Source of the DNA: Ophelia neglecta
Taxonomy: Eukaryota
Direction: 5' to 3'
DNA: 64,000 bases
Assembly: GCA_965285935.1 (NCBI GenBank)
Contig: OZ260663.1
Location: 64,356,001 to 64,420,000, forward strand
A program made the translations under genes and the position numbers. Positions 45,701 through 47,560 of this stretch are shown here, one piece after another (position 1 is the first letter of the stretch; each line of letters starts with the position of its first letter). A model generated the notes under the pieces. The model was given only the letters and a program-made list of their open reading frames with translations, was not told the DNA's origin and did no database searches.

Positions 45701-47560
45701 GTTTCACCTCCGGATTGTGACTGCAACTAGGTGCAACTATGGAGTGAACAATTTGAGTTGGCCTTGGCTGGCAATGCTCAGTCAGTCCATCCTCTCCATT
45801 AGCAACTAGGGCCCTTTCAATGGTTACGATAGCAAACAAGCTTTTATCCTCAAATCTTTAATATGAAGATACCTAGATTATATGTCCAAAGGTTCTTCTC
45901 ATTGATAGGGAAAAGATAATAAACCTCAAAACTCATGATGTATCCAGATTATTATGTATCGCTGCAAAGTCAGAATTCCAGATGTATCATTGGCATTTAT
46001 TTATTTTAGACACCACCATTTATGTCATTGCAATTAATCTGTGCCAGACAGTGGCATTGCATTTAAGTGTGCAGTGATCTTTTGCCTAGAAGTGATCGAT
46101 ATACATTATATATTGTGGCACATTGGGTGTACTTTTTTGTCCAAACACTGATTTGATAATCTAGTGTTGTATGATGTAACAGACACATATTTAATGTGTG
46201 ATCTAATATTAAGTTAAACATATGCTAACACAGTAAACATAAATATATGTTGTTGAAATATAAAAGTTGAAACCCATGAACACATATCCTTTTTTAAGAT
46301 TGAAAATTGCATGTATTATGAAATGTATATTACCCTATTGTAATCTGAAATTTTTGCATGACTTTTGCAGGTCAGGGTAAGAAAAAAACGTTCCAATTTT
46401 GGCTGACCACTTCTCTTCCCCTCGATATGCAAAACAACTACTACTTCAACAACTTACTAAACTGCGATACCAAACCTTAAAAACATAATTTGGCCTGCGC
46501 TCCTCTAAATCCAAACAGCTTATGACCCTGTGTCAGGGACTTGTTGTTCCTTAACAGTTTCTAGATCTACCAAAGCGGTTCATTATTGTAGAAAGTGTAC
46601 TAGTTCTTAGAAATTTGTTGTACCTCAAAATTTATTCAAAATTCTCACACATCCTTGTCAAAGGTAATCTTTCCATCACTTTGGCTTGTTTCTGTGATTT
46701 TAGTGTCAAACATTTTGTCTAATTTTAGACTTTTGCATCCATATTTTGTGATTTGCGCAGTGATATTAGTGCGTTTGTGACCTACTATAGAAATGTTGTC
46801 TTGTGATTTGCGACTCGTGGTTTATATGTTTTATTTTGTCCGTTGTGAGACGTGGTATCACATCGTATTTAGCCATTCGAGGGAGAAAATAGTGTCGAAT
46901 CCGGGATTCGAGCTGATTTCTCACCCTGCACCGCACCACTAGATTTGCATTGATATTGTTTGCCTGAAGAATGTCTGTGCTTATTCAGTGTATTTAAATT
47001 TTTTCTTTTTTCATTACCTTGACCATAAAAGGTTACGTTGCAGGACCGGAAGGATGCAACTTGTTCATCTACCACCTGCCTCAAGAGTTTGGAGATGCAG
47101 AGCTCGCCCAAATGTTCATGCCCTTCGGAAATGTGATCAGTGCCAAAGTTTACATTGACCGTGCCACAAACCAGAGCAAATGCTTTGGTAAGTAATCGTC
47201 ACTAACACATTCATCGGTGGCAATACTGACCCAGCCTATGATTTTTCCTGTATCTTTGTTGTTTTTGTGGCATTATTGTATTTTAGATGTCTTTGGTGTA
47301 TTTAGAAACTATTCATAGCAAGTAACCTACACTTGCACCAAAATTCACCTGCCAACAAAGCTTTTCTTTTAATATGAGCAATCTTTCAGCCAGCCAGAGT
47401 CCCAGCATATCAAGCTGACTTTTTCATTTCAGGCTTTGTGAGTTTTGACAACCCTGCTAGTGCACAGGCTGCCATTCAGGCCATGAACGGGTTTCAGATA
47501 GGAATGAAGAGACTCAAAGTTCAACTTAAGCGACCAAAAGATGCCAACAGGCCTTACTGA
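607..47560 (+). CDS. CELF4: CUGBP Elav-like family (CELF3-6 / Bruno-3 / UNC-75 subfamily) RNA-binding protein, 5'-partial spliced CDS: join(607-735,25813-25892,33732-33896,40854-41076,41960-42085,43665-43724,44856-44939,47044-47187,47433-47560)
   Basis: Manual splicing at GT-AG sites with matching phases gives one open frame: [14 protein letters not shown]...GCAFVKF...[17 protein letters not shown] (RRM2), a Q/A-rich linker, [16 protein letters not shown]...KCFGFVSFDN (RRM3), then [10 protein letters not shown]. These motifs are diagnostic of the CELF3-6 subfamily. The CELF4 symbol is nominal because invertebrates usually have a single pro-orthologue. Confidence 0.96.
6011..6242. repeat. Tandem repeat of four 53-58 nt units arranged as a duplicated ~111-nt dimer
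   Basis: The core accagggccaggcctgggtgctgttc..gtcaggtcacaggc recurs four times, with alternating tails (tcaagtctacc / ctagaagaggctg). Confidence 0.9.
24666..25188 (+). repeat. G-rich minisatellite, about 17 units of 28-34 nt (ttgagctgggtttggggctgggaggact)
   Basis: Directly visible tandem units. Accounts for the spurious P/S-rich ORF at 24627-24935(-). Confidence 0.95.
25813..25892 (+). CDS. CELF4: CELF exon B (80 nt, phase 1-0): (G)[26 protein letters not shown]
   Basis: Long T tract plus cgcag acceptor at 25812, donor CCG|gtaagc. Completes RNP1 (KGCAFVKF) across a 25,077-nt intron. Confidence 0.96.
31366..32326 (+). mobile_element. Non-autonomous/decayed DNA transposon, ISL2EU-like (PIF/Harbinger-related)
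   Basis: Perfect 14-nt inverted ends ATAGATCGAAGAAG (31366-31379) and CTTCTTCGATCTAT (32313-32326), each followed internally by gacgtca. These can be read as an AT target duplication plus AG...CT termini. The element is CpG-rich relative to the host intron and carries a coding remnant. Confidence 0.8.
31457..31637 (+). pseudogene. Frameshifted first-exon remnant of a transposon accessory protein (resembles the N-terminus of SWIM/YqaJ-type ORFs of ISL2EU elements)
   Basis: [39 protein letters not shown], then a frameshift, then [18 protein letters not shown]. The start looks mutated (aagATAgcg versus aagATGgcg) and it ends at gcaagt, a decayed or GC donor. The family assignment is from recalled motif similarity and was not searched. 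Confidence 0.6.
33732..33896 (+). CDS. CELF4: CELF exon C (165 nt, phase 0-0): [55 protein letters not shown]
   Basis: Acceptor ttgctttccag at 33731, donor TCT|gtaagt at 33897. Encodes the end of RRM2 and the start of the linker. Confidence 0.93.
37979..38012 (+). promoter_or_regulatory. Candidate intronic core promoter: TATAAAAG plus TCAGT initiator
   Basis: TATAAAAG at 37979-37986 and TCAGT with its A at 38008, which places TATA at -29. GGCGGG lies between them. Confidence 0.4.
40854..41076 (+). CDS. CELF4: CELF exon D (phase 0-1): [27 protein letters not shown]...PMTPTST; start may shift in 3-nt steps up to 40866
   Basis: Acceptor tatttttccctag followed by (CAG)4, donor CAG|gtaagt at 41077. 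[10 protein letters not shown] and YLNPM match the CELF3-6 linker. Confidence 0.92.
41960..42085 (+). CDS. CELF4: CELF exon E (126 or 123 nt, phase 1-1): (V)[41 protein letters not shown]
   Basis: Acceptor ttttttattttccag|tag|, donor CAG|gtaact at 42086. NGQ...ANGI..Y resembles the CELF linker. Confidence 0.88.
43665..43724 (+). CDS. CELF4: CELF exon F (60 nt, or 66 nt to 43730; phase 1-1): (A)[19 protein letters not shown]; missed by the ORF track
   Basis: Acceptor tttttctgcttattttag at 43664. DPLQQAYxGVQQYA is a conserved CELF3-6 linker motif. Donors are gtatag (43725) or gtgcat (43731). Confidence 0.92.
44127..44154 (+). repeat. Poly-C tract (serves as the pyrimidine tract of a candidate acceptor)
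   Basis: cccct followed by 23 C, ending in CAGCAG. Confidence 0.9.
44371..44448 (+). promoter_or_regulatory. Cluster of three (G/T)TGTTGTG UNC-75/CELF-type binding motifs
   Basis: GTGTTGTG at 44371-44378 and 44390-44397, and TTGTTGTG at 44441-44448. Confidence 0.55.
44856..44939 (+). CDS. CELF4: CELF exon G (84 nt, phase 1-1): (A)[27 protein letters not shown](G)
   Basis: Acceptor ttctgacattgtag at 44855, donor GAGG|gtaagt at 44940. YPAAYGQ and QKEG match CELF4-like proteins. Confidence 0.92.
46371..46376 (+). CDS. Candidate 6-nt frame-preserving microexon (GTCAGG, adds 2 residues: E-G-Q-G) just before RRM3
   Basis: tttttgcatgacttttgcag|GTCAGG|gtaaga: a good acceptor and a good donor 6 nt apart, phase 1-1. 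Confidence 0.65.
47044..47187 (+). CDS. CELF4: CELF exon H (144 nt; alternative start 47032, +12 nt): (G)[47 protein letters not shown](G), RRM3 N-half
   Basis: RNP2 LFIYHL. Acceptors aag (47031) and cag (47043), donor TTG|gtaagt at 47188. Confidence 0.96.
47433..47560 (+). CDS. CELF4: CELF last coding exon I: (G)[41 protein letters not shown]
   Basis: Acceptor ctgactttttcatttcag at 47432, stop TGA at 47558-47560, canonical CELF3-6 C-terminus. Confidence 0.97.

Follow-up and report, generated by a model that had tools for sequence, protein, structure and literature searches.

A candidate six-nucleotide microexon behind two Rbfox elements in the RRM3 pocket motif of a CELF3-6 gene

The eMIC-dependent neural microexons (SRRM3/4, Srrm234) of vertebrates, amphioxus and Drosophila are 3-27 nt long, preserve the reading frame and are followed by a strong donor. 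According to the available text of two studies (bioRxiv 10.1101/2021.02.24.432780, 10.1101/2024.09.17.613571), targets of the eMIC domain combine a UGC near the acceptor with long AG-exclusion zones, UCUC-rich tracts and strong branch points. Cassette exons regulated by Rbfox form a second relevant class, whose neural members are usually activated. Rbfox-regulated exons of C. elegans reportedly include egl-15 exon 5B, which is repressed, and unc-32 exon 7a. As stated in the available part of PMC10551640, Rbfox bound upstream of an exon usually promotes skipping. The CELF proteins themselves offer a third comparison. In human CELF1, as described in the accessible sections of PMC2731918, residues Gln394-Gly400 (QKEGPEG) of RRM3 form a rigid N-terminal extension over the beta-sheet and make up the G4 pocket, which holds the central guanine of UGU and to which Gln394 and Glu396 contribute; Glu396 also pairs with Lys477. 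The same paper gives CELF1 a reference Kd of 1.9 uM. The available portion of PMC3585155 reports that UNC-75 requires RRM3 for target binding and represses its own first RRM3 exon (exon 8); therefore, a splicing switch at the first RRM3 exon has precedent.

The stretch of DNA analyzed here (the window, 64,000 nucleotides) lies on contig C5 of a 762-Mb animal genome, G000, and its + strand carries the greater part of a CELF3-6 (bruno-3/unc-75-like) gene. Searches by tblastn with Capitella and other homologues recovered nine exons between 607 and 47560 that join into an open frame of 377 amino acids encoding RRM2, the linker and RRM3 (Table 1); no RRM1 exon was among the exons found within the 64-kb window. 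The features of the CELF3-6 class are present, namely RRM2, a divergent linker, an RRM3 with GPEGCNLF and a C-terminal KRP...PY end. In a tree of 30 proteins, built by a quick method and with no starred branch containing the window row, the window protein stands beside P0339, a Logan protein 91% identical to it, and Capitella teleta, its nearest named relative (SH-aLRT 90). The host is therefore likely a polychaete annelid. The CELF1/2 paralogue maps elsewhere, to contig C7, and inspection by eye of its same intron (about 470 nt) revealed no comparable microexon element.

Several other observations concern the same gene. The 25-kb intron inside RRM2 (736-25812) has tandem-repeat-like stretches near 6000-6250 and 24600-25000 in a translation scan. 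A second microexon-like element, TGTAAGAAG between ag and gtaagt at 28069-28077, lies in the phase-0 intron after RRM2, has 68 AG-free bases and a UGC, and would add three residues; several homologues vary in length at that junction. The exon that encodes the first half of RRM3 is likely the counterpart of unc-75 exon 8 of C. elegans, which UNC-75 itself represses. Approximately 5 kb beyond the stop, a short non-coding element (52692-52745) also occurs in L021 (85% over 52 nt) and in L022 (94% over 34 nt) and is probably a conserved part of a long 3' UTR.

Table 1. Features of the CELF3-6 gene and candidate microexon, with related elements elsewhere (window positions unless a contig or locus is named)
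Feature	Position	Strand	Basis or remark
Upstream exons of the CELF3-6 gene	607-735, 25813-25892 (RRM2), 33732-33896, 40854-41076, 41963-42085, 43665-43724 (linker)	+	tblastn, frame
Last linker exon, phase-1 end after Glu of QKE	44856-44939	+	tblastn homologues; open 377-aa frame
GT-AG intron, 2,104 nt, phase 1, interrupting the QKEGPEG codons	44940-47043	+	exon boundaries
Pyrimidine run with AAG further 5', a possible alternative acceptor (78-nt exon, stop at second codon)	46287-46298	+	sequence
Distal TGCATG (Rbfox element)	46308-46313	+	sequence
Proximal TGCATG, its UGC spanning -16 to -14 relative to the exon	46355-46360	+	sequence
3' splice site ACTTTTGCAG	46361-46370	+	preceded by 70 AG-free bases
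Candidate microexon GTCAGG, would add Gly-Gln	46371-46376	+	sequence, frame
5' splice site G/GTAAGA	46377-46382	+	sequence
Alternative acceptor that extends the RRM3 exon by GYVA	47032-47043	+	residues in P0339, ENA protein P0058
Exon for first half of RRM3, 144 nt, skipping keeps frame	47044-47187	+	tblastn, frame
Last coding exon, RRM3 second half and stop	47433-47560	+	tblastn, frame
12-nt exon-like element (EDRR)	L021 1236-1247; L048 1034-1045; L055 475-486		same intron, CAG/GT ends
Srrm234-like gene, two-exon eMIC domain	G000:C12:35078626-35080299 (L084, L085)		PF15230 match

The preliminary description of this DNA had reported GTCAGG between cag and gtaaga as a frame-preserving exon, with two TGCATG words upstream, and direct reading bears out both the layout and the two hexamers. 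The candidate lies between a canonical AG and GT, is within the 3-27 nt of microexons and is stop-free; six nucleotides keep the frame from the phase-1 end at 44939 to the RRM3 exon start at 47044 (or the alternative acceptor at 47032). A TGC had also been counted in the pyrimidine tract. That of tttTGCAG is the acceptor itself, and the one free UGC is the one within the proximal TGCATG. The tract is short and U-rich rather than UCUC-rich, and no CTRAY-type branch point ([CT]T[AG]A[CT]) occurs in the 100 nt 5' of the acceptor. The region has a single match in G000, which rejects a repeat origin. Three contig runs from one sample, possibly the source of the window DNA, span the intron unbroken and without splice joints, as DNA-like contigs; the 13 differences listed between them and the window include 46317 and 46323 between the TGCATG motifs and none in the motifs or splice sites, a density that is uninformative. 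Downstream of the candidate, the density of UGU lies no higher than the window's 95th percentile, and we do not count it as support.

The insert had been placed at the boundary between linker and RRM3. The intron instead splits QKEGPEG between Glu and Gly, within what the accessible sections of PMC2731918 describe as the structured N-terminal extension of RRM3, and this position in the pocket motif makes the insert functionally more interesting than a placement at the linker boundary. AlphaFold2 models of the insert-bearing P0339 and the insert-free P0343 gave the extension a pLDDT below 50 in both and thus no verdict on docking.

Among the known systems, the candidate resembles eMIC-dependent microexons in its size, its preserved frame, its strong donor, the UGC near the acceptor, the long AG-exclusion zone and the presence of the regulator domain in the genome: an eMIC (SRRM_C) domain matches PF15230 in G000 with 31.9 bits against a cut-off of 27 bits. 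However, it differs from them in having neither a strong (CUAAY) branch point nor a UCUC-rich tract, in carrying its UGC inside an Rbfox hexamer, and in that it was not found conserved beyond its own lineage. Regulation in neurons through eMIC is possible. The likeness to Rbfox-regulated cassette exons consists of two perfect UGCAUG copies in the 65 nt that precede the acceptor. Whereas neural Rbfox targets are usually activated, the candidate has no TGCATG downstream before 48283, an arrangement of putative sites that points to repression. Since both elements lie upstream, regulation may have either sign, and the neural inclusion that had been proposed is no more than a possibility. The PF12414 (Fox-1_C) profile, a model that may miss invertebrate Rbfox proteins, had no match in G000.

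We also examined how often such a layout is expected by chance. Among 20,000 introns of 2,104 nt simulated with a Markov model of order 4 fitted to 244 kb of the host genome, a basic layout (Y-rich YAG, 20 or more AG-free bases, an exon of 3n nucleotides, up to 27, without a stop, and G/GTRAG) occurred in 530 (2.65%), and 175 also had the UGC. At least one TGCATG within 75 nt was found in 8 of the 20,000 and two TGCATG in none; these frequencies are to be read with the criteria having been set post hoc for a site already known, after an earlier reader had covered about twenty such lengths. Real sequence from the genome (488 kb, both strands, window included) held 7 basic-layout sites, and only the candidate had TGCATG. 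Genome-wide, a tight pattern gave 9 matches, or 7 once a tandem triple was collapsed (the candidate included), compared to 5 for a donor-scrambled and 2 for a motif-swapped control pattern. The tight pattern alone is therefore near chance across the genome and most of its matches are chance, so the case for the candidate rests on its place, strand, frame and added features. Five other single-copy sites in the genome (L086, L088-L091) match TGCATG, acceptor, 6 nt and GTAAG, most probably by chance.

These numbers bear directly on the possibility that GTCAGG is an unused decoy, a chance splice-like pair with TGCATG words in an AT-rich intron that was picked up because the whole window was scanned. 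Such a decoy would fit the 2.65% of 2.1-kb introns (near one site per window) expected to hold the basic layout, the 7 genome-wide matches against 5 in the control and the missing branch-point consensus, as well as the absence of the insert and of the element from the homologues described below. However, the combination of two TGCATG, 70 AG-free bases, G/GTAAG and the right strand and frame arose in none of the 20,000 simulations, and a TGCATG-flanked element occurs in parallel in the same intron of other animals. On balance, we consider a decoy somewhat unlikely.

The homologous proteins show that the junction itself is variable. The junction is present in 345 of 355 homologues, and 322 of these could be anchored; 138 of the 322 carry an insert (37 distinct ones) and 184 carry none, although many of the sequences are isoforms of few species, polychaete transcripts are few, and 138 is not a number of independent events. 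Annotated inserts at or near the RRM3 junction include GCSIS in insects and crustaceans, VVFT/GTLEFPK in oysters, GAYIGGQ in scallops and VL/AL in nematodes. This variation resembles the candidate, as does the skipping of unc-75 exon 8, in affecting the first RRM3 exon or its immediate vicinity and in lying at the same QKEGPEG junction, and the candidate is as short as the shortest multi-residue inserts there. Several annotated inserts, however, look like shifted donors or acceptors, such as GSSLP, from a shifted acceptor in L022/P0125 that is equivalent to the GYVA acceptor of the window, whereas the candidate would be a free-standing 6-nt exon. The scallop insert ends in Gly-Gln and was tried as a 15 + 6 nt precedent. 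We rejected it, as 20 of 21 scallop sequences have the whole insert, one has none and none has part of it.

A bare Gly-Gln insert was present in 0 of the 322 anchored proteins, which are mostly from distant species; nevertheless, a frame-preserving microexon is probably, by some margin over even, the best reading of the site. P0339, the transcript-derived and intron-free protein of the closest relative among these sequences, has GYVA through the 47032-type acceptor and no Gly-Gln, and the same four residues also stand upstream of RRM3 in P0058. P0339 thus supports the GYVA acceptor and provides mild evidence against the candidate as a major form.

Conservation of the flanks had been suggested as a check. 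No GTCAGG-type element was found in 80 fetched loci having the RRM3 exon, and blastn of the entire intron against the fetched loci gave short chance matches only. The candidate was absent from all 25 complete homologous introns, most of them distant and with a distinct shared linker end (the annelid-like L022 is included); two unrelated strict matches were found there, neither flanked by TGCATG. What the search did recover is a different, 12-nt element (EDRR) in three animal contigs. One TGCATG lies about 20 nt before this element and another no more than 12 nt after it, it is read in the phase of the intron in all three, its lone internal difference (AGA/CGA) is synonymous, and it is preceded by 67 AG-free bases in two of them. 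Its block can be aligned at about 74%, unlike much of the intron, which is incomplete in these three contigs. EDRR occurs in none of the 355 proteins. Differing from GTCAGG in length and sequence, it is, by alignment, a parallel and not a demonstrated homologue; the three contigs nonetheless indicate that the RRM3 intron can host a conserved, Rbfox-flanked short exon-like element.

The preliminary description had passed over a competing upstream AG that would yield a 78-nt, stop-containing exon. Joined to the donor at 46377, the AAG acceptor at 46297-46298 would produce a poison exon with an immediate stop, leading to nonsense-mediated decay; the TGCATG words would then be exonic Rbfox sites and the 6-nt form a minor alternative acceptor. 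Of 12 positions, 10 are pyrimidines at the upstream acceptor and 7 at the microexon acceptor, and the stop comes at codon 2. However, AAG is a poorer 3' splice acceptor than CAG, and a microexon better suits the long AG-free zone, which closes with a clean YAG six bases short of the donor. In favor of the poison exon, L021, L048 and L055 keep a conserved acceptor-like TTGCTTCTAG 70-80 nt 5' of the EDRR element, exons starting from which have stops or shift the frame, and feedback splicing of CELF is known from unc-75 exon 8 (available portion of PMC3585155). We regard this alternative as quite improbable.

It had also been proposed that the AG/GT junction acts as a zero-length recursive site, whereby the upstream exon would join 46371, GTCAGG would regenerate a donor and the six bases would be removed with the second half of the intron. 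The likeness to recursive RS-exons is a YAG/GT junction, with A at +4 and G at +5, that is soon followed by a second donor. Cryptic recursive splice sites have been described mainly in long introns, whereas this one is only 2.1 kb, and the regenerated donor (6 of 9 consensus matches, hand count) is weaker than the exon's own GTAAGA six bases on (7 of 9). Although recursive skipping is possible for exons whose first bases are GT, as noted in the available text of PMC6224609, recursion is very improbable here.

Taken together, the rare layout, the EDRR parallel, the inserts in 138 of 322 proteins, the use of GYVA and the eMIC domain count for a microexon; the absence of a Gly-Gln protein and of the element from 25 introns, the lack of a clear genome-wide pattern excess and the missing branch-point consensus count against it. 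We conclude that GTCAGG is probably, though not by a wide margin, a real, lineage-restricted microexon. The full explanation, in which an optional microexon of this lineage inserts Gly-Gln into the RNA-gripping QKEGPEG and likely retunes RRM3 binding, we hold to be evenly balanced. Given that Rbfox upstream generally causes skipping and that the stretch from the exon to 48283 has no TGCATG, we favor skipping as the default, under repression by Rbfox: Rbfox at -16 and -63 would keep the acceptor closed, and inclusion would follow once an eMIC-type activator works via the overlapping UGC or Rbfox is lost. Gly-Gln would then shift the extension and set Glu-Gly-Gln in place of the Gln-Lys-Glu of the guanine pocket (CELF1 394-396), or else loop out. 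Recognition of UGU by RRM3 would be weakened or altered, while the C-terminal nuclear signal would be untouched.

A broader proposal is that the intron within the QKEGPEG codons is an old splicing switch of invertebrate CELF3-6, at which inserts evolved lineage by lineage (shifted acceptors, donors and at least two Rbfox-gated microexons), each displacing residues that read the guanine, so that neurons would obtain isoforms with a detuned RRM3 under Rbfox/eMIC control. We offer this as a speculative and, as a whole, unlikely extension. No report of a microexon at the QKEGPEG junction of CELF was found in the literature, though such events could already be recorded in supplements and VastDB tables. 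Vertebrates, amphioxus, flies and nematodes have documented microexon programmes, whereas annelids have barely any. Microexons of this kind are already known; what the candidate adds is its position inside the motif that forms the RRM3 pocket and the recurrence of inserts there. If real, the candidate would place a two-residue exon, under the control of a second regulator, in the pocket with which a neural master splicing regulator reads RNA. It would be a small example, open to experiment, of splicing factors regulating one another, and it would explain the function of many inserts at the RRM3 junction in molluscs, arthropods and nematodes.
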